From positions 62,001 to 126,000 of the IMG/VR virus record IMGVR_UViG_3300001242_000018: DNA of 64,000 bases. One strand, given 5' to 3'. The DNA is from an uncultured virus (IMG/VR IMGVR_UViG_3300001242_000018) (taxonomy: Duplodnaviria; Heunggongvirae; Uroviricota; Caudoviricetes). Position 1 is the first letter of the stretch. Every line of letters begins with the position of its first letter. Below are positions 39,885 to 54,404 of the stretch, in pieces. Both the position numbers and the translations under genes were made by a program. The notes beneath the pieces are model-generated. The model had not been told where the DNA came from, did not search any database, and saw only the letters and a program-made list of their open reading frames with translations.

Positions 39885-40280
39885 ATGAGAATGATAGTAT
39901 GTAATGTGAGAAAGCCTAAACCCAACGTGAAGAAAGTTGAAGAGCTTAAATCTCTCCGTAGATTCTGTGCAATGGCTTTTGTAGCTGTAGAGGCTGTAAA
40001 GTTAACAACACCGGCACCTGTCATGGCAGCGATAAGCGGTAGTACTAAAGCTGCTGCGGCGGCCGCTACCTTCGGAATTGGAGGCCCTGGATTTATCATT
40101 ATAGAGGTTCTTTTGATAGCTATTGTAGGCGGAATTACTGCTACCATAGCCTCTACCATCGGTTATGGCAACGTAGCTAGGCTTCTAGTCTTTATTGGTA
40201 CTATGGTATGCGTAGGACTTATCTGTGACTTAGCTGGAGGTGTTGTTAATAAAGTAATGGACTTTGCGGGGATGTACTAA
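39885..40280 (+). CDS. Membrane protein with SpoIIIAC/AD-like or pilin-like C-terminal TM hairpin
   Basis: 'LIAIVGGITATIASTIGYGNVARLLVFIGTMVCVGLICDL...VNKV'; start after AAGGAG. Confidence 0.45.
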   Translation: MRMIVCNVRKPKPNVKKVEELKSLRRFCAMAFVAVEAVKLTTPAPVMAAISGSTKAAAAAATFGIGGPGFIIIEVLLIAIVGGITATIASTIGYGNVARLLVFIGTMVCVGLICDLAGGVVNKVMDFAGMY

Positions 40281-42892
40281 TGGGAGTAAGTTTAATCATA
40301 GGAGGAGTATTAGGAGCAACTATTACTACCAGTGCCGGCATTAAAGCTATCAGAGATTATATGGTTGGAAAACAAATGGACGACGTATTAACCACCGGAG
40401 TTACAAGGCAGGTATTGGTCGAAAGGAATTCAGAGTTAGGGGCGCAAGCCTTAAAGAATTACTGGGATTCTTTAGGCGTACTTGGTAGATGCGAGGTGCC
40501 AATGCATTTCTCTACTGAATTCCATTTCTCAGAGCATAAAGCTAAGATGATTCAATGGTACCCTCGTAGACTGGATAATACTATGCAGCGAACCTTAAAT
40601 GCCGTGCATAAAGCTGCTGAGTTAAAACCTATTAAAGATCCGTTAACTCTGGATAGATTCAAAGGGCGGTCGGTTAAAGCAATCGAACTTGAATTAGCAA
40701 AGAACTATATCTTCAATATAGAGATGATTCGTGGAGAGAAGATGCCTGGAGACCCTGTAACTAATATAATATCCGCAGGTACAAATTTAGCATCAGGTTG
40801 CGAGGTGATAGTACAGATTTTAACAAGACCGGTATCCGGTAGATATATTGAGAAAGGTAAATTCTATCTCAATAACTATGCAAAAACCCATAGCGAACCT
40901 CTTAAATTAAACAGTAACCTTAAGATGATTACAGAGGTATTCGGGCCTATACTAACACTAGGAAATGCAATTTACATACTAGGTACTAAGAATATACCAG
41001 CACCCAAGTACAGTAACATAGATATTAAAAAGATGAAAGATAAGATTAACAGCGGGATACTATTTGATACCCATATTCGCATTATAGCCATAGCTAGTAA
41101 CGATGCTGTAGCTATGAGTAACTTATCTACTATGGCCAGCGCTTTTGCCACAATAAGTGATGGTAATAGCTTTATAGTAAATAAGGTAAAACCTACGAAT
41201 AAATGGATTGATAACTTCTGTAAAAGAAAGATACCTCCTTATGTAACAGAGAACCTTTTATCAAGTAATGAACTTGCTTATTTTGTACACTTCCCGGATA
41301 AAAGAGTACCCTATGTGGAAAGACTCAAGAGTAAGAAACTACCCGTTCCAGAAGAAGTCCTGACATACAAAACATTCTGGGATGCCATTAACGATAATGC
41401 AATACCATTTGGATACTCTACATTTAGGGGTAGAACTAAATGGCTTGCCTTTAGAGATGTAAAGATGCTAAGACAACATGCTTATATTATAGGAGGTACC
41501 GGTGCTGGTAAGAGTACTATGTTAATATCCATGGCTCTTGCTGTTATTAAAAAAGCCGGACTTACATTCTTTGATGTTAAGGGTACCACTTTGGATAGAT
41601 TTATAGGGTATCTAAATAAGAGTGAAAGAGAGCGTGTCGTATACGTAGACCTCTCTAGTGATGATTTCTTTATACCAATGAATATCATGGCTGTAAGTAT
41701 GCCACCATATGATTTAGCAAACCTAATTGTGGATATATTCATTAGTGCCTTTGGAGAGAAATCCATTCAAGCTCGAAGTCAGAAGGTACTGCGACAGGCT
41801 GTGTTAGCCGTTTCCGTCAATGATAAGAATGGTACCATAATGGAAGTATACCGAATGTTTACTGATAGTAATTATCGTAGAAGAAGATTAGAAGATCTAG
41901 AGAGGTTATACCAACAGGGGAAGTACACAGAAGTTTATGAGTACTGGAAGAAGTTCGTAGGGAAGAAAAATGCTTATGATGACCCGGATGCTCAGCCGAT
42001 TATTAATAAGTTAGAGAAGATTATGCAAAGTACTAGACCTCGTATGATGCTCTCTCAAAGAAGTAACGTTTTAAATTGGGAGAGATTTATGAATGAGAAG
42101 AAGATTGTATTAATCAATCTCAATATAGGGACTAATACTCCTGAAATTCAAAGGCTCTTTGCCACTATGTTAATGACTATGATACGGCAAGATACCTTTA
42201 AAAGGTTAAAAGATGGTCGGCACGAGAATGACAGAGAGACTCATGTTACTATCCTAGACGAATTCGAGGAATTTGCTAAAGATCCTGTTGAGTTTGAAAG
42301 ACTCCTAGCTATGGCTCGTGAATGTGGTAATGGTCTTATCTTAACTCACCAGGCTAAAAGCCAGTTGCCGGATAGGATATTTGATATTATTGCTGATAAT
42401 ACATTTACACAGGTCGCTATGAATATTGGAGACGCTTCGGCCCCGGTTATCTCCAAGATGTTTCCGGGCTTTGAATCTCAGGATATGACGAGCTTTACTT
42501 GTGATATAAACGAAGGACTTGAAGGAGTTTGTAGGATGAAGAAATTATCACCCGAACCCTTCACCTTCTATACTCCTTTATATTGGAAACTGTTTAAGGA
42601 TTACGGAAAGGTTACTGAAACTATTAATAAACTCCATACAAGAGATCATGTGTCAATTATGCAGTGCTTTAGAGATATAGAAGCAAGATACAAGACTACC
42701 AAGGAGGATACGGTAACAGATGCTACCATTCAAAAGCAACCGCAAAATATCAAAGTACGAAAGGATAAACCTAGAGGATCCCTTAAGGCTATACCAGGAG
42801 CTATTAAAAAGTCGAGTACTTCAACCCCGGGATTTGAAGGTTCTGGAGGCGGTATATTACCGCAAATGTGTGATACCAAGACACCTGGGTAG
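40280..42892 (+). CDS. VirD4/TraG/TrwB-like (HerA-FtsK superfamily) coupling ATPase
   Basis: N-terminal TM; Walker A 'HAYIIGGTGAGKST', 'FFDVKG', Walker B 'ILDEFEEF', 'ARECGNGLILTHQ..SQL'. Confidence 0.8.
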   Translation: MGVSLIIGGVLGATITTSAGIKAIRDYMVGKQMDDVLTTGVTRQVLVERNSELGAQALKNYWDSLGVLGRCEVPMHFSTEFHFSEHKAKMIQWYPRRLDNTMQRTLNAVHKAAELKPIKDPLTLDRFKGRSVKAIELELAKNYIFNIEMIRGEKMPGDPVTNIISAGTNLASGCEVIVQILTRPVSGRYIEKGKFYLNNYAKTHSEPLKLNSNLKMITEVFGPILTLGNAIYILGTKNIPAPKYSNIDIKKMKDKINSGILFDTHIRIIAIASNDAVAMSNLSTMASAFATISDGNSFIVNKVKPTNKWIDNFCKRKIPPYVTENLLSSNELAYFVHFPDKRVPYVERLKSKKLPVPEEVLTYKTFWDAINDNAIPFGYSTFRGRTKWLAFRDVKMLRQHAYIIGGTGAGKSTMLISMALAVIKKAGLTFFDVKGTTLDRFIGYLNKSERERVVYVDLSSDDFFIPMNIMAVSMPPYDLANLIVDIFISAFGEKSIQARSQKVLRQAVLAVSVNDKNGTIMEVYRMFTDSNYRRRRLEDLERLYQQGKYTEVYEYWKKFVGKKNAYDDPDAQPIINKLEKIMQSTRPRMMLSQRSNVLNWERFMNEKKIVLINLNIGTNTPEIQRLFATMLMTMIRQDTFKRLKDGRHENDRETHVTILDEFEEFAKDPVEFERLLAMARECGNGLILTHQAKSQLPDRIFDIIADNTFTQVAMNIGDASAPVISKMFPGFESQDMTSFTCDINEGLEGVCRMKKLSPEPFTFYTPLYWKLFKDYGKVTETINKLHTRDHVSIMQCFRDIEARYKTTKEDTVTDATIQKQPQNIKVRKDKPRGSLKAIPGAIKKSSTSTPGFEGSGGGILPQMCDTKTPG

Positions 42893-43631
42893 TGAATTCT
42901 TTGGTATAGACTCTAATGGTAACCCGAATAAGATCGCAGACATCATAGCTAGGCGGAGGCTTAAACAATATTACCGGTGGCATATAATTGACCGATTCTT
43001 TGTAGACCCTGGGTTAAATAAGGGGAGTTCTCCACAGTATGTAACACTTGATGTTATAGGGGCTATGATACTAGCAGGATGGTGGGGATGTACTATGAAA
43101 GAATTAAAGTGGAAGAAAGAAAGGAATGATGTACAAATACCTTACTTAGCCCATATTATAGAGATTAATAGCTTCAGAGAATGGCTGGTCAATAACGCTA
43201 AGGTAGCGGGCCATCTCCCTGGAGTGTGGAAGGTAGAGCATCATAATTATGTATCGTTTGAAATGGATGAACTTAATTATAGGTTAGAGCCGGATGGGTA
43301 TTGTCAGTACTGGTTTAATAAAGAAGATGGGTTCCATTTCTTTTACGAGCACGATAGAGGAACGATGTCTTTAAAGCAGTGGAAGGAGAAAATAGCCAGG
43401 TATCAATTGTATTTTGATAGCCGGCATTGGCAGAAAGACAGTGAGTTACAATTCCCGATCGTATTATGTACTACAACAACATGGAAACGTACTGAAGAGC
43501 TTTCTGCGTTATGTGCGGAAACAAATGTAGTCTGGTTCTTTACCTCTTACGAGAATGGATTTACAGACGAATGGATCGAGAGTAGTACCGAAGGAAAAAT
43601 ACAGTTATTCAATACGAAAGACGGGGCTTAA
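42720..43631 (+). CDS. Replication-relaxation (Replic_Relax) family protein
   Basis: wHTH 'RDLKVL...ARRRLKQ', 'YLAHIIEIN', 'LEPDG', 'FFYEHDRGTM...EKI.RY..Y', 'FPIVL..TTT..R'. Confidence 0.8.
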   Translation: MLPFKSNRKISKYERINLEDPLRLYQELLKSRVLQPRDLKVLEAVYYRKCVIPRHLGSEFFGIDSNGNPNKIADIIARRRLKQYYRWHIIDRFFVDPGLNKGSSPQYVTLDVIGAMILAGWWGCTMKELKWKKERNDVQIPYLAHIIEINSFREWLVNNAKVAGHLPGVWKVEHHNYVSFEMDELNYRLEPDGYCQYWFNKEDGFHFFYEHDRGTMSLKQWKEKIARYQLYFDSRHWQKDSELQFPIVLCTTTTWKRTEELSALCAETNVVWFFTSYENGFTDEWIESSTEGKIQLFNTKDGA

Positions 43632-45863: not shown

Positions 45864-45929
45864 AGTATCACCTCCTTTATAAAATAAAGACTATAGTAAA
45901 ATACTACAGTCTTGGATAAAAGATTATTA

Positions 45930-46006
45930 TGGTCGGGATGGAGGGATTTGAACCCCCGATTTCCTGTTCCCAAAACAGGCGCCTTACCAAGCTAGGCCAC
46001 ATCCCG
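45930..46006 (-). tRNA. tRNA-Pro(TGG)
   Basis: Full cloverleaf CGGGATG...CATCCCG-A-CCA; anticodon arm CCTGT-TTTGGGA-ACAGG. Confidence 0.92.
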
Positions 46007-46010
46007 ACAA

Positions 46011-46147
46011 TGACCGGGGAGATAGGAAGACCCGGTCAAAGTGTCGAAGCACTAAGTTAGTACTGTTTTGACATACTTATCGATGCCGGGTACAGCCCGA
46101 AACCCAACTACTTCAAGGTGTAGTCAATCCTGCCTTATTAATAAGGC
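46011..46147 (-). ncRNA. Candidate structured RNA 'D' between tRNA-Ile2 and tRNA-Pro
   Basis: Run of hairpins: GCCTTA/TAAGGC, GACTAC/GTAGTT, CGGG/CCCG, TGACCGGG/CCCGGTCA. Confidence 0.35.
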
Positions 46148-46149
46148 TC

Positions 46150-46224
46150 TGGTGGGCCCTAAGAGATTCGAACTCCCAACCAACCGGTTATGAGCCGGAT
46201 GCTCTACCATTGAGCTAAAGGCCC
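46150..46224 (-). tRNA. tRNA-Ile2(CAT), possibly elongator Met
   Basis: GGGCCTT...AGGGCCC-A-CCA with CAT anticodon; the GGGCC acceptor is typical of lysidine-modified Ile2. Confidence 0.85.
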
Positions 46225-46598
46225 TTAAATAAGTTTCATATCAAATTCCATTGTTATAACAAATACTAATTTTCTTTTAATTGTCATCTTTAATTCCTTC
46301 CAACTGTAATAATAATTGTAAAAGTGCTTTCGTATATGAAATATTACATTCTATCGGGTTATTGATTCTTCTAAATGCTTTACCGATAGATTTTAAATTA
46401 CAAATCCTATCTAAACATCTTTAGGAACGAAATTTACATTTCCTATAGCCTCTTCGAGCATATCTTTTTCAATGCCAGACATAACAAATACATATACACC
46501 ATCTAATTCACTACTATTATTAGAACAATTATAATGACTTTTTGCGAATATATTATTCACTCCTTAAAGTTCATTAAATCATCACCTAAATTAATTTT

Positions 46599-46679
46599 TG
46601 GTCGGGATGGAGAGATTCGAACCCTAAATCACTGGTACGGGCTTAAACCGTATGTCTCTACCAATTGGGCTACACCCGG
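46599..46679 (-). pseudogene. Degenerate/chimeric tRNA-Leu(TAA) with a Pro-like 3' end
   Basis: D and anticodon arms nearly identical to tRNA-Leu 48676-48753, but the 3' end TCCATCCCGACCA equals tRNA-Pro; mismatches in acceptor and T stems. Confidence 0.6.
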
Positions 46680-46710
46680 AAGATGATCGGTTACAACCTA
46701 TTACTCATCT

Positions 46711-47004
46711 TTAGATCTCCATCCAGTTACTAAACTCAGAATCTTGCTCTAAACCTTTAGAAATAAGTAATTTTACAAGAGTGGGTATGTCTCTATCAAT
46801 CATAGATTCAAAAGAAGAATCCGCTAAACTTACTAAAGAAAGTTCATCTAATATGGGATTAAGTATATCCCACTCTTCTTTGGTATAACTATCAGTAAGA
46901 TAATGATAATTATTCCAACATTCTTTAGTATTGATCGTAACTACAATTAAATCTGGTTCATCTGGAAACGTACATACATGAAATATAAATTTATTTGTAT
47001 CTAT
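46711..47004 (-). CDS. Hypothetical acidic protein inside the tRNA array (probable ATA start)
   Basis: AAGGAGTG + 6 nt + ATA GAT ACA AAT; the ORF-track start lies inside a tRNA. Confidence 0.55.
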   Translation of the reverse strand: MDTNKFIFHVCTFPDEPDLIVVTINTKECWNNYHYLTDSYTKEEWDILNPILDELSLVSLADSSFESMIDRDIPTLVKLLISKGLEQDSEFSNWMEI

Positions 47005-47025
47005 AAATATCACTCCTTTAATGTT

Positions 47026-47101
47026 TGGTTGCGAGTGCCGGACTCGAACCGGCAACCTCCAGTTTATGAAACTGACGAGCTTCCAATTGCTCCAACCTGC
47101 G
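47026..47101 (-). tRNA. Initiator-like tRNA-Met(CAT), atypical
   Basis: CGCAGG...GCA-A-CCA with C1:A72 mismatch; anticodon arm TCAGT-TTCATAA-ACTGG. Confidence 0.75.
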
Positions 47102-47105
47102 ATAA

Positions 47106-47231
47106 TGCTGCAATTTAGTGGACTACGTGTACCTTAATCCGTGATAGATCCTTTACCCATATTAGCAGATATATTACATCAGCTTATGGAGTTATATCAC
47201 TGGTTAAAGTCGCGCCGTTTGCAGCTGCCAC
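47106..47231 (-). ncRNA. Structured RNA motif A, copy 1
   Basis: GTGGCAGCTGCAAACGGCGC-[long irregular hairpin]-GTACACGTAGTCCACTAAATTGCAGCA; ends shared with 48757-48870. Confidence 0.7.
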
Positions 47232-47250
47232 TACAGGGCGTGAAGCCCTC

Positions 47251-47327
47251 TGGTCTGGGTGGAGAGATTTGAACTCCCAGTTACCTGCTCCTAAAGTAGG
47301 CGCCTTACCAAACTAAGCTACATCCCG
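47251..47327 (-). tRNA. Pro-scaffold tRNA with TAG (Leu) anticodon, possibly a pseudogene
   Basis: 5' CGGGATGTAGCTTAGTTTGGTAAGGCGCC resembles tRNA-Pro; loop TTTAGGA; two acceptor mismatches and one anticodon-stem mismatch. Confidence 0.55.
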
Positions 47328-47391
47328 AGGAGGCCCAAGGGTCGCAACTCCTTGAGCACATGATAAAGTGGTTGGGATCAGCAGTTATCCC

Positions 47392-47476
47392 TGGCGGAGG
47401 GTACAGGAGTCGAACCCGCTAGGCTTTTACACCTCGACTGTTTTCAAGACAGCTTACCACCGTTGGCCTACCCTCC
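47392..47476 (-). tRNA. tRNA-Ser(TGA)
   Basis: GGAGGGT...ACCCTCC-G-CCA, long variable arm, TGA anticodon, short D arm. Confidence 0.85.
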
Positions 47477-47559
47477 GTAATGCAATGGCTTTTATTCGCT
47501 TAGTTAATTGTTCCGGTATGCTAAAGCCATTAAAATATCAACCGTCTACAATTTAATAC

Positions 47560-47603
47560 TGGCGGAGACAGAGGGAGAATCGACTTATAAATTGCGACTC
47601 TCC
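47560..47603 (-). pseudogene. Internally deleted tRNA-Ser-like remnant
   Basis: GGAGAG...TCTGTCTCC-G-CCA ends retained; D and anticodon arms absent. Confidence 0.4.
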
Positions 47604-47618
47604 ATGATTCCATAAATG

Positions 47619-47632
47619 GCGGAAGGTATAGG
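47619..47632. repeat. 14-bp direct repeat of the tRNA-Ser(GCT) 3' end (other copy 48081-48094)
   Basis: GCGGAAGGTATAGG on both sides of the HNH gene. Confidence 0.85.
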
Positions 47633-47635
47633 CCC

Positions 47636-48055
47636 TTATAATACATGTTTCCATATTAAACGATTCTTTATATCAGATATTACACTGTGATGTATTTCAA
47701 ATAATCTTCCTAATTCTCTAATACCATAGCCATTACTAAGTAAACATCTAATATATACAACCTGTTTTTCATTAAGTTTTGCATTAACATGATTAGAACC
47801 CTTTATACTAGGTCTATTTCTCATCTTTTCTCTAGTTGATTCGGGTAATTTCTTACCAAGCATATGTAATCTACTATGTTCTTTTCTTGTGGTCAATTCT
47901 AAATTACTAGGTTCATTATTTCCTTTACATTCATCTTTGTGATGAACAATTTCAGAACTAAGTAACTCTCTACCAAGTTTTGCTTCCATAACTAATCTAT
48001 GTTCGTTATTGGTGGTATTTTTGTTTATTCTAATCTTTTTATATTTATTAGAAAT
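47636..48055 (-). CDS. HNH homing endonuclease (HNH_3) with NUMOD3-like motif and C-terminal HTH
   Basis: 'EHRLVME..LGR.L.S.EIVHHKD....NN...NLEL.....H...H', 'GKKLPESTREKM', 'G..H.NAKL....V..IR.....G.....L...F.I....I..I.....WKH'; more AT-rich than its flanks. Confidence 0.85.
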   Translation of the reverse strand: MSNKYKKIRINKNTTNNEHRLVMEAKLGRELLSSEIVHHKDECKGNNEPSNLELTTRKEHSRLHMLGKKLPESTREKMRNRPSIKGSNHVNAKLNEKQVVYIRCLLSNGYGIRELGRLFEIHHSVISDIKNRLIWKHVL

Positions 48056-48080
48056 AATAATCACCACCAATTAGTTTAGA

Positions 48081-48166
48081 GCGGAAGGTATAGGATTTGA
48101 ACCTATGCAGGTGTTACCCTGGCCTTTGATTAGCAATCAAGCACATTACCGCTCTGTCAACCTTCC
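48081..48166 (-). tRNA. tRNA-Ser(GCT), CCA not fully encoded
   Basis: GGAAGGT...ACCTTCC-G-C, GCT anticodon, long variable arm. Confidence 0.85.
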
Positions 48167-48167
48167 A

Positions 48168-48249
48168 GTCATTCAGTGTGCCAGTCTTAAGTGGGTTCCA
48201 TTGGGCACACTGAATATTGTATGTGAGCTCTAGAGATATGCCAACTCTA
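48168..48249 (-). ncRNA. Structured RNA motif B, copy 1
   Basis: TAGAG-TTGGCATAT-CTCTA GAGCTCACATACAAT ATTCAGTGTGCC-loop-AAGACT-GGCACACTGAAT GAC; homologous to 48950-49031. Confidence 0.7.
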
Positions 48250-48256
48250 ATACTTA

Positions 48257-48342
48257 TGGTGGAAGAGGTAGGATTTGAACCTACGAAGTTGTTACACGGC
48301 AGATTTACAGTCTGCTCCCATTAACCACTCGGGCACTCTTCC
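48257..48342 (-). tRNA. tRNA-Tyr(GTA)
   Basis: GGAAGAG...CTCTTCC-A-CCA; GCAGA-CTGTAAA-TCTGC. Confidence 0.92.
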
Positions 48343-48349
48343 ATGATAA

Positions 48350-48422
48350 CGGTTTCAGGGGAGGGATTCGAACCCACGACCTTCAGGGTATGAACCTGAC
48401 AAGCTACCTCTACTCAGCGTCG
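48350..48422 (-). pseudogene. Degenerate tRNA-Met(CAT)
   Basis: Anticodon arm TCAGG-TTCATAC-CCTGA and a TTCGAAT T loop remain; 5' acceptor strand does not pair; ends in ACCG. Confidence 0.6.
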
Positions 48423-48425
48423 TTA

Positions 48426-48503
48426 TGGAAGGGGAAGTAGGATTCGAACCTACGAATGTACGGATCAAAACCGTATGCCTTAGACCAACTTAGCTACACC
48501 CCT
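48426..48503 (-). tRNA. tRNA-Gln(TTG)
   Basis: AGGGG...CCCCT-T-CCA; TACGG-TTTTGAT-CCGTA. Confidence 0.88.
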
Positions 48504-48654
48504 ACATATTTATAAAGTGTATTACAATATCTAAGAAACTTAAGTCTTTAAATTCCCAAAATAATAATTCATTACATTCTATGCATGGAATTAATTCATA
48601 AAATTCTATATCGCAATTTCCATACAAACAAGTTGAACATGATTTCTTAGACAT
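48502..48654 (-). CDS. Small Cys-rich peptide (about 50 aa)
   Basis: AAGGTG SD, then MSKKSCSTCLYGNCDIEFYELIPCIECNELLFWEFK... Confidence 0.35.
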   Translation of the reverse strand: MSKKSCSTCLYGNCDIEFYELIPCIECNELLFWEFKDLSFLDIVIHFINM

Positions 48655-48675
48655 TATATCATCACCTTATATTAT

Positions 48676-48753
48676 TGGTATCGGTGGAGGGACTTGAACC
48701 CATCACTGGTACGGGCTTAAACCGTATGTCTCTGCCAATTGGACTACACCGAC
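48676..48753 (-). tRNA. tRNA-Leu(TAA) with a short variable arm
   Basis: GTCGGTG...CACCGAT-A-CCA; TACGG-TTTAAGC-CCGTA; variable region only about 5 nt. Confidence 0.8.
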
Positions 48754-48756
48754 ATG

Positions 48757-48870
48757 TGCTGCAATTTAGTGGACTACGTGTACTTCTTGAGGATAGATTC
48801 TCTAGTCCACTTTAATAAATAAACTAGAGAATCTATCCGAACAAGAAGCAGCGCCGCTTGCAGCTGCCAC
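48757..48870 (-). ncRNA. Structured RNA motif A, copy 2
   Basis: GTGGCAGCTGCAAGCGGCGC-[near-perfect long hairpin]-GTACACGTAGTCCACTAAATTGCAGCA. Confidence 0.7.
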
Positions 48871-48872
48871 AT

Positions 48873-48947
48873 TGGCAGGGAAAGCTGGATTCGAACCAGC
48901 AACATACGGATTAACAGTCCGCCGTTCTACCATTGAACTATATCCCT
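48873..48947 (-). tRNA. tRNA-Asn(GTT)
   Basis: AGGGA...TCCCT-G-CCA; GCGGA-CTGTTAA-TCCGT. Confidence 0.9.
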
Positions 48948-48949
48948 GT

Positions 48950-49031
48950 GTCATCCAGTGTGCCAGTCTTGGATTGCACCCTCCGGCACACTGGACATTG
49001 TTTGTGAGCACTGGACATCTGCCAACATCCA
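48950..49031 (-). ncRNA. Structured RNA motif B, copy 2
   Basis: TGGATGT-TGGCAG-ATGTCCA GTGCTCACAAACAAT GTCCAGTGTGCC-loop-AAGACT-GGCACACTGGAT GAC. Confidence 0.7.
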
Positions 49032-49042
49032 TTATTAAAAGC

Positions 49043-49204
49043 TAATAGGTAGATGAGAGATTGCAGTCTCTCATGATTTAGTAATCCCCTGCAGTAGAAT
49101 TACACAGTGTTGACTTCTGGAATTGAGATATACCACACCTTATACGCCATGTATAATATATCCCAGTGTATACCTTAGCCTTCGGTATAGCCCACTACCT
49201 ATTA
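49043..49204 (-). ncRNA. Candidate multibranch structured RNA 'C' (162 nt) at the head of the tRNA array
   Basis: Perfect 10-bp closing stem TAATAGGTAG/CTACCTATTA enclosing four arms. Confidence 0.6.
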
Positions 49205-49220
49205 ACATCTTCGACATTCC

Positions 49221-49466
49221 TTAACTATAACGAGCTATTGAAGCATTGGCCCAGAATACAGCCTCTTCAATCTTCTTTATAGCTTCGCGTTTATCCATGC
49301 TGTCAGGACATAATTCATTGATAAGTTCTGCGAAAGCCTTACCCATACCGCGAATCTCCTCATACTTCTGAGGCTGCTCTTCCGTAGGAGGATGATAGCT
49401 AAATCTTTTCTCGATTTCAACGTCAGGGATGCTCTTTAAGTCCTGAACTTTATTTGTATCATTCAT
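49221..49466 (-). CDS. Acb2/Tad1-like helical-hairpin protein (candidate anti-defence nucleotide sponge)
   Basis: 'FSYHPP...Q..KYE.IR......A..I.ELCPDS..K..A..K.EEAVFWANASIAR'. Confidence 0.55.
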   Translation of the reverse strand: MNDTNKVQDLKSIPDVEIEKRFSYHPPTEEQPQKYEEIRGMGKAFAELINELCPDSMDKREAIKKIEEAVFWANASIARYS

Positions 49467-49471
49467 ACTAA

Positions 49472-49777
49472 TCACTTCCTGCGTCGTTTATTATACCATT
49501 TTACAGGATTGTTAGATGTAAACTTTTCATAGCTAGGTTTCTCAAGAGGCATAGGTGCGAGTCTAGCATGCATCATAAGACCGATAGGATTGATATGCTC
49601 TTTTACTGTTAAAATACCGCCATCTATAATGTAATCTACGCTATTTTTAAGCTCTTTACCGTTTTCATCTACTATGCACAACCCGCTATAACCTGAGCAT
49701 TGGTTATTGCTAAAAGAATTCCTTACTCGGGTCTTAAATTCGATTATATCTTCTTTAAGAAGATTGGCAAAACTCAT
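49472..49777 (-). CDS. Hypothetical protein
   Basis: Likely start MSFANL after GGTG. Confidence 0.4.
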   Translation of the reverse strand: MSFANLLKEDIIEFKTRVRNSFSNNQCSGYSGLCIVDENGKELKNSVDYIIDGGILTVKEHINPIGLMMHARLAPMPLEKPSYEKFTSNNPVKWYNKRRRK

Positions 49778-50169: not shown

Positions 50170-50427
50170 CTACATGTCAATACCCATTTCACTTATATAC
50201 TTCAAGTTCATCACGGTAGTAAGGATAGGGTAATAAAGACAAGTACCGCAATTTGCTATTATAGCATTAGTATATTGAGGTACTATTCTACCTTTACTAT
50301 CTTTTAATATCTTCTTGGGATTTAACTTCCAACTCTTACAACACCTATCCAAACCCATTACACGTACTTCATACTCGTTCGAGTCTAGCACGGTGTCCTG
50401 ATTAGAGCATGTATTATTTTCACACAT
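50170..50427 (-). CDS. Cys-rich hypothetical protein
   Basis: Overlaps the nrdD stop codon. Confidence 0.35.
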   Translation of the reverse strand: MCENNTCSNQDTVLDSNEYEVRVMGLDRCCKSWKLNPKKILKDSKGRIVPQYTNAIIANCGTCLYYPILTTVMNLKYISEMGIDM

Positions 50428-53400
50428 GAGGTATGCGATCTGTCTCTTCCGCTACTTTTGCGTCATTGAAGCGCTCAAGTGTTGAAATGTACCCTGTTAT
50501 TCTGCGAATCCTATCTATCTTATCTCTTTCTCCACATACAGGACAGGGTTCTCCATGTGGTATTATATTATTATGAGTACCACAGGACTTGCACAAATCT
50601 ACTGGATAATTAACAGCAGCGTAACCCATATCGCAAGCGGCCATGTGTAATACTATATTCTCAATAGCATCGATATTGTGTTGCGGCATACTTTCGAATT
50701 CAATGTAACTCATGTGGCCACCATTGCAATATTTATGGAATGGCCCCTCTATTGCTATTTTATCATAATAGCTAATAGGATAATCAACCGGTACATGATA
50801 ACTGTTTGTATAGTATTTCTTATCAGTCGCTCCGGGAATTGTCCCAAACTCTTCACGGTCAAGTTTGGTAAACCTACCCGATAAACCTTCTGCCGGAGTA
50901 GCAATAACAGAGAAGTTAAGGTCGTATTTCTCGCATGCTTCATCGGCTATCTTGCGAATATAAGATATAATTTTATGACCCAGGGCCAGTGCATTTGTAC
51001 TTTCAGCATGATACTTACCTACAAGTACTTTCAAACATTCAGCTAAACCAATAAAGCCTAGTGTAAGTGTACCATGCCTAGCAGCTAGATAGATACTATC
51101 TTCTGGATTTAATTTGTCAGCATCCCTGTATAAGTCTTGACCAATTAGGAAAGGAAAGTCTTTAGCCTTTAATGTACATATATATTCAAAACGATGCATG
51201 AGCTGCCGTACTATAAGGTTTAATACTTCATTATGCAATTCAAAGAAGTAACTTAACCTGGCATCTGTATCATCAGGATGCTTTAACATAGCCTTTATAG
51301 CTAGTCTGGGTAAATTCTCTGTGGTAAACCCTACGTTTCCTCTCTCAATTGTAGTAGATTCTCCATGACGGTCGGCTACTACACGGGTACGACAACCCAT
51401 ATAAGAGATATCTCCGTCTTTATTAAAACTACTGTCGCAGAATACCCAACTAGGATTGAGCCGTTTAGCTGAAACTTCCTGTGCCAAACGAAATAGGTGA
51501 TAGTACGGATCCGACTTATGCATATTAACGCCGCTCTTAATCTTAAAGCAAACGTTAGGAAATATCGGTTGCTCGCCATTCCCTAAACCGGCTTTAAAAG
51601 CTCTTAAGAACCATTCACAGATCTTAGCAGCATCGGGACTTTGCACATTACCTATGTTGATAGAAGAGAAAGGGATCTGCCCCCCTCCCCTGCTGTTATG
51701 AACGAAGATACACTCGGCTGTCAAGAATGTTTCATTATCTTCTACAGATAAATCGTAGACGTATTCATCACCACTGTTAGACTCAAGACATTGATTAATA
51801 GAAACGGGGAATACGTTAGTAGCGGCCCCGAGTCGTTTGTCTGTCATAGCATATATATCTATTTCATGGGGCTTAATCTTCTTATACTGGATTAGCTTAT
51901 TGTTTTCTTTGATTAGAGATTTCAGAAATTCGTAGTCGTAATGCTTTTGTTCATACATAACCTTACAACCAAACTCTAATCCTAATCTATTCTCCGCAAT
52001 TCCACTAATAGATATCTCATAATTGAGTGATGTACCGTAATTCGAACTGGTAGTTCTCTCGGCTATATGAGGAAGCTCACGCAACCTTAAAAGCATGAGA
52101 TTTAACTCATTGCGTAATCTCTTACTTACAGTGGTAGCTATAATATAGTTCTCTTTAATACTACCGTCACATTTGAAGTACCCATTAAGGAATGATATAA
52201 GTACTTCATCTTCTGCAAACAAGATCTCTACAGGAATATGTTTAGTATAAGCGTCATAGCCGAACTTGTCTTTAAACATATCGGCCCATACCTTACCTAC
52301 ATTAAACCGTATATCCTTCGGTTTACCGATAGGTGTAGGATAACGATTATAAGTAATATTCTCTCCATAACATTGCTGCATAAGAGAGATTAACTCATCT
52401 TCTTTATTAGTAGAACATACTGTAAAGCAGAGTTGAGATCCTCCTACTACACTACCTTCAGCCACATAATAACCAGCTATCTTGGCAAACTCCATAGTTA
52501 CTACAATATGATCATCTAAGTAGTTTTGAACTTTTCGTGAATGATAATGATCTAAACCGATATCGCCTCTAACCGGTGGGAGATCGATACCTCTTGGAGA
52601 TAAAACATGATTCAATGTTTCTGGGAACCTGCCAGTTACATTACCGTAGTCATCCATACACATAGTAACATGATTATCGGTAGTAGTATTTTTCCTACCT
52701 TCATTGTCAATAAGAGTAATAAGTCTACGGTTATTATCTTTCTTACTGACACTTGTAATATACTTCATCTCTGCCTTACCAGTCACATGGTTAAGACTGA
52801 TAGTTTGATACCGATTGGGTTCAAAGATTTCAGCCAATTTGCCAATAGCTATCTGTAAGAGTTCTTCTTCGACAGTATCGTATATCCAAATCTCCTGACT
52901 ATACGGCAAGCAATGCATCGTGTTAAGGTTATAGATTAAAGCCTCCATAGCTTGGAATCCTTTATGATCGAGTATTCTTTCTACCTGAGTATCAATGGCT
53001 TCCGGATCTAATTCGTTAAAGTTCTTACCTGTAAGTTCTACGCCATACCGTAAATCACGACGTATCTTCTCCCGTTGTTGCTCCATTATTCCGGTCGCGA
53101 CGAACTGATTATCGAAATCCGGATAACTTTGACCGCCGTACATCTCATTCTGATTTGCCTGGATAATTATGCTCGCATGCATAGCAGCGGTCTTTAAGCT
53201 ACGGGCTGGACGGATAAAGCCATGGCCGGTATTAAATCCATGAGCAGCTAGTTTCTCATAAGGTATTTGACAGCAATTGAGTCCTTTGCCATACCAAGCT
53301 TTATCATGGATATGGATGTCTCCATTATCATGTGCCTCACTAAACTCTCGAGGTATTACTCTCTTACCGTAAAAATACCCAGATGCGGCTTCGGATATCT

Positions 53401-53785
53401 GAAGTACCTTACCAGCCATAGTGGGCCCTACATTAGCATTATCCTTTGTAGCTTCTCGGTCGATATCCCGGATTACATCCATTAGATCATCCTTACCTTC
53501 GCGTAGGGCAGCTCGTCGTTCTCTATATACGGCATATCTTCTAGATACTTTCCAGTATCCTGCGACGCAAAGAGTCTGCTCAACAACGTCCTGGATGGTT
53601 TCTATATCAATGATCTTTTCATCCGGCAATTGTTCAATTACCTTACTTATTAATAACGTAAGACATTGATCTTCATAAGGTATCTCACTGGCAATAAAAG
53701 CTTTCTGTATTGCCATACGAATTTTCTCAGGATACCATTCTGCTAGTGTTTCACCATCACGTTTACGTACATAAGGTGTTGACAC
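50420..53785 (-). CDS. nrdD: Anaerobic (class III) ribonucleotide reductase with ATP cone and intein
   Basis: ATP cone 'VRKRDG....W...KI..AI.KAF', 'AHDNGDIHIHD', 'NCCQI', 'SYMGCRT', 'ATPAEGLSGRF', 'YYTNS', CxxC..CxxC, 'RRITGY'. Confidence 0.95.
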   Translation of the reverse strand: MSTPYVRKRDGETLAEWYPEKIRMAIQKAFIASEIPYEDQCLTLLISKVIEQLPDEKIIDIETIQDVVEQTLCVAGYWKVSRRYAVYRERRAALREGKDDLMDVIRDIDREATKDNANVGPTMAGKVLQISEAASGYFYGKRVIPREFSEAHDNGDIHIHDKAWYGKGLNCCQIPYEKLAAHGFNTGHGFIRPARSLKTAAMHASIIIQANQNEMYGGQSYPDFDNQFVATGIMEQQREKIRRDLRYGVELTGKNFNELDPEAIDTQVERILDHKGFQAMEALIYNLNTMHCLPYSQEIWIYDTVEEELLQIAIGKLAEIFEPNRYQTISLNHVTGKAEMKYITSVSKKDNNRRLITLIDNEGRKNTTTDNHVTMCMDDYGNVTGRFPETLNHVLSPRGIDLPPVRGDIGLDHYHSRKVQNYLDDHIVVTMEFAKIAGYYVAEGSVVGGSQLCFTVCSTNKEDELISLMQQCYGENITYNRYPTPIGKPKDIRFNVGKVWADMFKDKFGYDAYTKHIPVEILFAEDEVLISFLNGYFKCDGSIKENYIIATTVSKRLRNELNLMLLRLRELPHIAERTTSSNYGTSLNYEISISGIAENRLGLEFGCKVMYEQKHYDYEFLKSLIKENNKLIQYKKIKPHEIDIYAMTDKRLGAATNVFPVSINQCLESNSGDEYVYDLSVEDNETFLTAECIFVHNSRGGGQIPFSSINIGNVQSPDAAKICEWFLRAFKAGLGNGEQPIFPNVCFKIKSGVNMHKSDPYYHLFRLAQEVSAKRLNPSWVFCDSSFNKDGDISYMGCRTRVVADRHGESTTIERGNVGFTTENLPRLAIKAMLKHPDDTDARLSYFFELHNEVLNLIVRQLMHRFEYICTLKAKDFPFLIGQDLYRDADKLNPEDSIYLAARHGTLTLGFIGLAECLKVLVGKYHAESTNALALGHKIISYIRKIADEACEKYDLNFSVIATPAEGLSGRFTKLDREEFGTIPGATDKKYYTNSYHVPVDYPISYYDKIAIEGPFHKYCNGGHMSYIEFESMPQHNIDAIENIVLHMAACDMGYAAVNYPVDLCKSCGTHNNIIPHGEPCPVCGERDKIDRIRRITGYISTLERFNDAKVAEETDRIPHV
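51695..52912 (-). mobile_element. Intein (406 aa) with LAGLIDADG homing endonuclease in NrdD
   Basis: LNTMH|CLPYSQ...TTTDNH...IAGYYVAEGS...FLNGYFKCDGS...YVYDLSV...IFVHN|SRGGGQ. Confidence 0.93.
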
Positions 53786-53786
53786 A

Positions 53787-54404
53787 TTAATCGCTCTCCT
53801 TCTCATGTTGCATACTGACAGTATCGCGAAGGATTTGCAGTTCTCGCATTGTTATCTTTAACTGCTCCCTGGAGTTAAACAGTTCATTCTTTAGATACTT
53901 AATCATCTGAACCATCTCTGCAATGGTATCGAATTTAGAGAATGAGTACAAATCATCTGTATCTTTAAGTTTGAAGTTAACTACCGGGAACTTGCCCCTA
54001 CCCTTACACTCTGCAATAGCCTTATCAAGCCATCCTTTTTCTATTGTTATAGATAACTTTCCTCCACCTGTAATTATAGGTTTTCTTTCTTTAGTCTCAT
54101 TAAATATCACATCATCCAGAAAATCTCCTGGACGATGTGTTTGATTTCCGGAACCGGGGTTAATCTTAGCCTCCATCTCTACGGCGCTAGGCATAGCATT
54201 TACAGTTAATGTACCTTGAGTTTCGGCATTACGCCAGGATGGATTATTCCTGGCGATTTGTGAGTTATTAAAGTGTCCGGCTTTCTTACGACGTTGGTTA
54301 CGTACCTTATCTTCAGGTAATCTTAAAAGATCTTTATTCATGCACCTGTAGCACGAATTCTTAGCCCCGCTTAAACAACGTCCATAGAATTCGCATTCAG
54401 ACAT
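53787..54404 (-). CDS. PD-(D/E)XK nuclease, Hjc-type Holliday junction resolvase-like
   Basis: 'NPGSGN....PGD......ETK......SITI.K.WLDK...E'. Confidence 0.6.
   Translation of the reverse strand: MSECEFYGRCLSGAKNSCYRCMNKDLLRLPEDKVRNQRRKKAGHFNNSQIARNNPSWRNAETQGTLTVNAMPSAVEMEAKINPGSGNQTHRPGDFLDDVIFNETKERKPIITGGGKLSITIEKGWLDKAIAECKGRGKFPVVNFKLKDTDDLYSFSKFDTIAEMVQMIKYLKNELFNSREQLKITMRELQILRDTVSMQHEKESD

Follow-up and report, generated by a model that had tools for sequence, protein, structure and literature searches.

The IMG/VR virus record IMGVR_UViG_3300001242_000018 carries, inside a tRNA array, two copies of a structured RNA element that we call motif A. Numbering refers to a 64,000-nucleotide window of this record, in which motif A and the tRNAs lie on the minus strand. 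Copy 1 (47106..47231, 126 nucleotides) and copy 2 (48757..48870, 114 nucleotides) share a core in which 46 of 47 nucleotides are identical, and each contains a long hairpin. Motif A is real, selected, uncatalogued and so far private to one phage. Our first-ranked, still tentative interpretation is that it is a stable small RNA, freed by tRNA processing and presenting a sequence-specific surface. A self-cleaving ribozyme, rewired from the hepatitis delta virus (HDV)/theta fold, comes close behind.

The limits and letters of the two copies, originally proposed in a sequence-only reading of the window, were correct. On the minus strand, the 5′ blocks agree at 19 of 20 nucleotides, and the 3′ blocks are identical over all 27 nucleotides. 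The copies are 1651 nucleotides apart. Copy 1 lies between a degenerate tRNA-Pro paralogue and tRNA-Met; it begins 19 nucleotides past the CCA of the former and stops 4 nucleotides 5′ of the latter. Copy 2 begins 2 nucleotides past the CCA of tRNA-Asn and stops 3 nucleotides 5′ of tRNA-Leu. The spacing to the following tRNA is near-constant (3 and 4 nucleotides) whereas the 5′ spacing varies (2 versus 19 nucleotides). Identity between the copies begins exactly at the first G of the 5′ GUGG sequence, hereafter position 1 (G1), and the sequence upstream is free. Because the flanking tRNAs differ between the copies, the comparison indicates that motif A moved as a unit. The tRNA-Pro paralogue upstream of copy 1 is the one at 47251-47327 (minus), which had been called as tRNA-Leu(UAG) but is actually an 82% paralogue of tRNA-Pro(UGG). 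With a single anticodon change and broken acceptor pairs, it is probably a decaying copy.

No third copy was found in the 137,036-base record when the 20- and 27-nucleotide blocks were searched with up to six mismatches. The covariance-model search advocated in the sequence-only reading likewise recovered from the record the two known copies only. Contigs from public sequencing runs cover each copy with no alternative letters, although four of the five runs holding the motif may be the source sample. This distribution bears on a DNA-level explanation, according to which motif A would have no RNA function and would be either a miniature inverted-repeat element or the product of a recent duplication homogenised by gene conversion. 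The long inverted repeats would suit such an origin, and a perfect 16-bp stem and a 9-nucleotide inverted core copy in copy 2 suggest template switching. However, there are two copies only, both between tRNAs, with no target-site duplication. In addition, G-U-preserving changes mark one strand as RNA, and conversion would require two tracts ending exactly at structural borders. The DNA-level reading is thus disfavoured, and we consider it very improbable. A scattered repeat resembling a miniature inverted-repeat transposable element, the outcome that the sequence-only reading had set against its own proposal, was rejected for want of many dispersed copies and of target-site duplications; motif A is confined to the tRNA array.

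In agreement with the strand that had been proposed, folding favours minus over plus in both copies, with minus-strand fold z-scores of -2.6 for copy 1 and -8.5 for copy 2. The expected structured RNA with a compact conserved core was also recovered, the nested helices folding in both copies. A 7-bp closing stem (S2, equivalent to P2) is continued by P3 (R-U, C-G, G.A, G.U, C-G, G-C) and, beyond P3, by the long hairpin. In copy 1, the 5′ strand of S2 (47219..47225, minus) pairs with 47107-47113 and that of P3 (47213..47218, minus) with 47122-47127. The variable, long and irregular hairpin occupies 47131..47210 (minus), and its seven basal pairs covary with those of copy 2. On the 3′ side, an 8-nucleotide bulge, CCACUAAA (47114..47121, minus), comprises the 3′ strand of S1 (equivalent to P1) and an A-rich loop, and contains a theta-like CUAA. 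In copy 2, S2 is formed by 48858..48864 (minus) and 48758-48764, and P3 by 48852..48857 (minus) and 48773-48778. The variable hairpin of this copy (48781..48850, minus) indeed contains the perfect 16-bp stem previously described, with arms at 48823-48838 and 48791-48806, and U-G pairs lengthen the helix to 22 pairs.

An H-type pseudoknot is predicted when S1 is added, having a 2-nucleotide first loop, the long hairpin as middle loop and an A-rich last loop. In copy 1, GUGG (47228..47231, minus) would pair with CCAC at 47118-47121; in copy 2, 48867..48870 (minus) would pair with 48769-48772. The proposal of a GUGG/CCAC pseudoknot was borne out in part. The pairing is possible, such a 4-bp match arising in 1-6% of shuffles, but it is invariant and therefore receives no support from covariation. 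We regard the knot as plausible. An A-U to G-U change that had been pointed out is real and lies at position 14, but the partner is not the U of CGU as had been thought. Pairing with the U of AGU is favoured (probability 0.87 / 0.42, as compared to 0.01 / 0.08 for the U of CGU). In copy 2, nine nucleotides of the hairpin (48803-48811) are the exact complement of the core of the same copy at 48768-48776, a match found in 0.3% of shuffles in a post hoc comparison. The arm pairing with 48803-48811 resembles the core segment bearing three C-to-U changes. A conformational switch through this anti-core was rejected, since the alternative fold has an energy of -28.2 kcal/mol as compared to -54.5 kcal/mol, that is 26 kcal/mol worse.

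Comparison of the two copies shows selection on pairing. Among 23 end-anchored pairs, 17 are unchanged, three are changed on one side, three on both sides, and none is broken. The probability that all six changed pairs remain paired is 0.0008-0.02, depending on the transition bias. Changes are unevenly distributed, affecting one of 16 pairs in the core but five of seven at the hairpin base (Fisher p 0.003). Between the two copies, the hairpin is therefore a structural arm in which pairing matters and letters do not. The sequence-only reading had described the interiors as unrelated and exchangeable. Their overall likeness is indeed not significant (the score is reached in 415 and 683 of 5000 shuffles), but the seven basal pairs are in register and carry compensatory changes. 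The base of the hairpin is thus homologous and covarying, which contradicts an exchangeable interior. As far as two sequences can suggest, the interior is a helix that drifts in sequence while selection maintains its structure, rather than a swapped cassette.

The core behaves differently. Other paralogue pairs of the array are 81% (tRNA-Leu), 82% (tRNA-Pro) and 74% (motif B, a second duplicated element described below) identical, and against these values a single difference in 47 nucleotides gives a binomial p of 0.001 or less. The comparison is suggestive of a core held letter by letter while the hairpin drifts with its pairs kept. The stem letters of S1 and S2 are fixed as well, which suggests recognition by sequence.

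On the stable-RNA interpretation, the phage tRNA operon would include motif A as a gene for a small non-coding RNA, co-transcribed with the tRNAs. Host cleavages that mature the adjoining tRNAs would also release this RNA, by RNase P on the following tRNA and by 3′ processing on the preceding one. The knot would hide both ends in helices, so that the RNA would persist. The invariant core would form a surface recognised by its sequence, with a protein of the host or the phage as the most likely partner, and the RNA would act in trans during infection as a decoy or mimic. We rank this interpretation first because the stem letters are fixed, the 3′ spacing is constant, the tRNAs carry CCA and there is a precedent in phage T4. 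The T4 tRNA cluster keeps two small stable RNAs, rnaC and rnaD (species 1 and 2 RNAs, 119-139 nucleotides), at 1 and 6 nucleotides from their neighbours (NC_000866; PMC3014915). Like motif A, they are small structured RNAs packed tightly inside a phage tRNA cluster. Their folds are different: rnaC is an acceptor/T-arm mimic with long hairpins, and rnaD a hairpin followed by a long irregular stem. Another parallel is offered by the type III antitoxin RNAs ToxI and CptI, in which a compact H-type pseudoknot is recognised by a protein (PMC5086642). These antitoxins are short tandem repeats cut to monomers, whereas the two copies of motif A lie apart and each has a long hairpin within its predicted knot. 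None of the Rfam antitoxin models scores on motif A at E up to 10. Phages reportedly carry RNA mimics of a type III antitoxin, the pseudo-ToxI decoys.

Several observations weigh against the stable-RNA interpretation. Only two sequences from one phage are at hand, hence no family alignment. Template switching at inverted repeats could produce part of the hairpin covariation without selection. No TROVE/Ro60 gene was found in the 137-kb record, which is about 61% complete. Finally, the sharp start of identity at G1 and the presence of theta-like words fit self-cleavage at least equally well.

Theta ribozymes, which are minimal HDV-like ribozymes, occur beside phage tRNAs (PMC10879173), and the order of their parts is: P1 (6-7 bp), J1/2 (2-3 nucleotides), P2 (7 bp), RCC, U, CC, ACGY, GGY, P1′, GG, L4, CUAA and P2′. 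Motif A was compared with three distinct theta sequences from the supplement of that work. The sequence-only reading had stated that the helix order differs from that of HDV; on the contrary, the order P1-J1/2-P2-P3-L3-P3′-P1′-J-P2′ is the same as in the theta examples. Further common traits are the phage tRNA context, a P1 starting with G, a 2-nucleotide J1/2 and a 7-bp P2. Three theta words are also in register in motif A: RC after P2, ACGU (for ACGY) before the 3′ strand of P3, and CUAA before P2′. All three occurred together in 167 of 2,000,000 structure-preserving shuffles, but the words were selected after inspection and the true odds are less extreme.

These similarities raise the possibility of self-cleavage: motif A would be a ribozyme with a novel architecture, derived from the HDV/theta fold by strand rewiring and cut at or near G1. 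A P4-like hairpin would have moved into L3, replacing the P1.1-P4 stack, while P1 shrank to 3-4 bp. The CUAA strand would directly follow P1, and the same C, as general acid, and G would form the active site. Cleavage would separate the tRNAs in the precursor and leave a 5′-OH end. A cyclic-phosphate end alone would not block trimming, since RNase II and RNase R are listed as indifferent to the 3′ terminus. Beyond the helix order and the words, such a ribozyme would account for identity beginning exactly at the G that opens P1. The start of copy 2, 2 nucleotides from the tRNA 3′ end, agrees with the theta rule of ±5 nucleotides from a tRNA (PMC10879173). Some departure from the canonical P1.1 would also be admissible, as cellular HDV ribozymes are described as tolerating a non-Watson-Crick pair there.

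Many features are, however, at variance with a ribozyme. Four P1 base pairs are common to the copies (six are possible in copy 1 only), as compared to 6-7 in theta ribozymes, and the third P3 pair is G.A where theta has C-G. At the L3 position, motif A has GCGC and the long hairpin (opened to 70-85 nucleotides) in place of a short loop starting U-CC. Motif A lacks U-CC, the GG that forms P1.1, and L4; UAAA comes directly after P1′. The HDV-like signature U/G pair in L3 is missing its U. The CGU of ACGU is predicted to pair with GCG, and the C of CUAA, the putative catalytic residue, is also the predicted partner of G1. A double pseudoknot and a catalytic cytosine are described as general to the HDV-like class. 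A relaxed HDV descriptor, applied with no positive control, gave no match on either strand of either copy. Copy 1 starts 19 nucleotides from the CCA of the preceding tRNA, outside the theta rule. Moreover, 10 of the 11 tRNAs of the array encode CCA, as compared to 4.5% of theta-linked tRNAs, and the phage comes from groundwater whereas theta phages come from the gut (PMC10879173). Searches of the partial record for a CCA-adding enzyme, RNA ligase, AAA_33 kinase or RtcB were negative, the one for a T4-type ligase having no working positive control.

With its 4-bp P1, its lack of U-CC, P1.1 and L4, and a C that doubles as partner of G1, motif A does not belong to the HDV-like ribozymes. It resembles a rebuilt HDV/theta fold, and may derive from that fold or work like it. 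We consider self-cleavage rather unlikely. The absence of P1.1 and L4 was counted in favour of the stable-RNA interpretation.

The near-constant 3′ spacing could also reflect a cis-acting processing element, in which the knot would block 5′-to-3′ decay by RNase J before the next tRNA, the hairpin would be an RNase III site dividing the polycistron, or both. Both copies stand 3-4 nucleotides before a tRNA, their 5′ end would be paired, and the 22-pair helix of copy 2 would suit RNase III. Viral exonuclease-resistant RNAs (xrRNAs) block bacterial RNase J1, and in these RNAs, as predicted for motif A, the 5′ end is paired into the junction strand of a three-way junction. However, the flaviviral and plant-virus xrRNAs require a 15-16-nucleotide, pseudoknot-closed ring around the 5′ end (PMC8374639, PMC5760640), and the predicted secondary structure of motif A shows no second pseudoknot to close a ring. 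A plain hairpin would shield the 5′ end without 46 fixed letters, the hairpin of copy 1 is irregular, and the majority of tRNAs in the array lack such a leader. We judge a processing role improbable.

A pseudoknotted acceptor mimic of the turnip yellow mosaic virus (TYMV) type is less probable still, and would be a surprise. S2 would then correspond to an acceptor stem of 7 bp and the A after it to a discriminator base, to which CCA would be added once the end was trimmed; RNase P, synthetases or tRNA-targeting defence nucleases would act on the product. The predicted topology is indeed H-type, and one conserved A comes after the 7-bp terminal stem; TYMV-type acceptor arms and H-type RNase P substrates (PMC12710915) likewise terminate in the 3′ stem, with a purine after it. 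Unlike TYMV-type tRNA-like structures, motif A has no T-arm, and the T-loop word is absent. No CCA is encoded after S2, where A-CAU and A-UUAU follow, though 10 of the 11 tRNAs have it; the only CCA of the core is the 3′ strand of S1. In the same source, RNase P left an H-type pseudoknot with no 3′ RCCA uncut.

Relatives of motif A were sought outside the phage with sequence patterns, a covariance model and BLAST. The model was built from two sequences, and its runs on prokaryote genomes and cultured phages had no positive control, so that distant relatives may be missed. No homologue was found outside the phage by patterns on contigs, by BLAST against cultured phages or by the model on 341 other genomes or records. 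Among exact and gapped patterns run on viral contigs, one gave no match and another gave six loci, all with the same unrelated hairpin before an open reading frame. These six related viral contigs (L001-L006) share, near position 600, a covarying 12-bp hairpin about 14 nucleotides before a start codon; it is unrelated to motif A and possibly a cis-regulatory element. Further patterns gave five viral loci without the 3′ half and 20 without a fitting closing stem or tRNA. Another one gave at least 118 loci, with none of 120 matches beside a tRNA among the matches listed. For 23 metagenome loci and at least 100 genome loci, three of the 124 matches listed have an S1 partner: two are the phage's own copies in a 220-kb assembly (L035, L036) and the third has no other likeness. 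The model gave at most 21 bits on 100 of these 123 metagenome and genome loci.

Results obtained with baits were similar. On 41 viral loci retrieved with tRNA-Leu, the model gave three weak matches, the best of which lies inside an open reading frame (fold z 0.9). A structure-only descriptor found no comparable spacer element in 101,517 bases around the tRNAs of 40 of these 41 loci, and on 32 of the 41 whole records the model gave one weak match, to the interior only. It gave none on sets of 5, 151 and 151 prokaryote genomes plus T4 and 0305phi8-36. BLAST against cultured phages returned only tRNAs or short chance matches. Searches with protein baits led to no related loci, and one protein encoded nearby has no relative at all. 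Among the sequencing runs holding the motif, no RNA run is listed.

No Rfam 15 family reaches its gathering threshold on motif A, and only tRNAs score in the window; sub-threshold hairpin models of the miRNA type match the interior of motif A only. The core words of hammerhead and glmS ribozymes are absent from motif A, and these candidates were rejected. Pistol, twister and hatchet ribozymes, pieces of group I/II introns, Y RNA and retron non-coding RNA were rejected too, because the order of their parts is a misfit, no Rfam score was obtained and the record yielded no TROVE gene. We found no description of motif A in the portion of the literature covered; the alignments of a catalogue of 10,006 candidate viral RNAs (PMC10690425) are outside that portion and may list it.

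The virus record is linear and about 61% complete. The stretch recurs letter-identical in one 220-kb metagenome contig, and the public runs holding it are groundwater and sediment metagenomes. Among cultured phages, Bacillus phage 0305phi8-36 has the closest primase (31% identity), from which we infer a probable Bacillota host. The array comprises 11 tRNA genes (45930..48947, minus) and is closed by a terminator-like hairpin at 45887-45913. Its two tRNA-Leu(UAA) genes (46599-46679 and 48676-48753, minus) have a short variable arm, and a degenerate tRNA-like sequence at 48343-48425 (minus) has a partial Rfam tRNA match but was not called by ARAGORN. An HNH gene at 47636-48070 is flanked by a 14-nucleotide duplication of the 3′ end of tRNA-Ser(GCU) (47617-47632 and 48081-48094), with CCA only on the downstream copy, an arrangement suggestive of insertion of the gene into the end of the tRNA.

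Motif B (48170-48245 and 48950-49026, minus) has promoter-like hexamers with a 17-nucleotide spacer, followed by a strong hairpin just 5′ of a tRNA. A promoter scan of the region gave 14 promoter-like sites as compared to 11.7 expected by chance. Both motif B copies contain such sites; none of the 14 lies inside motif A, and a promoter within motif A was rejected. At the head of the array, a multi-hairpin non-coding stretch with a 12-bp closing stem (49038-49210, minus) has a fold z-score of -3.95, and a multi-hairpin spacer separating two tRNAs (46007-46149) has fold z-scores of -2.6 (minus) and -3.2 (plus); neither has an Rfam match. A gene with an Acb2/Tad1 hairpin domain, from an anti-defence nucleotide sponge family, lies immediately upstream of the array (49221-49475, minus). 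Farther away, a HerA/coupling-protein-like ATPase (40280-43631, plus) adjoins a replication-relaxation gene, and an anaerobic ribonucleotide reductase (50420-53806, minus) carries an intein and a LAGLIDADG domain.

Since T4 rnaC and rnaD, no explanation has emerged for the additional small RNAs of phage tRNA clusters. Motif A, known for now from one phage and of correspondingly limited reach, provides a short natural pair that distinguishes fixed from free positions. If it is not self-cleaving, it would likely exemplify the reuse of a ribozyme-type fold for a stable binding RNA, next to an anti-defence gene. If it is self-cleaving, the HDV fold can be rewired, and motif A would supply a new search descriptor for ribozymes that present ones miss.

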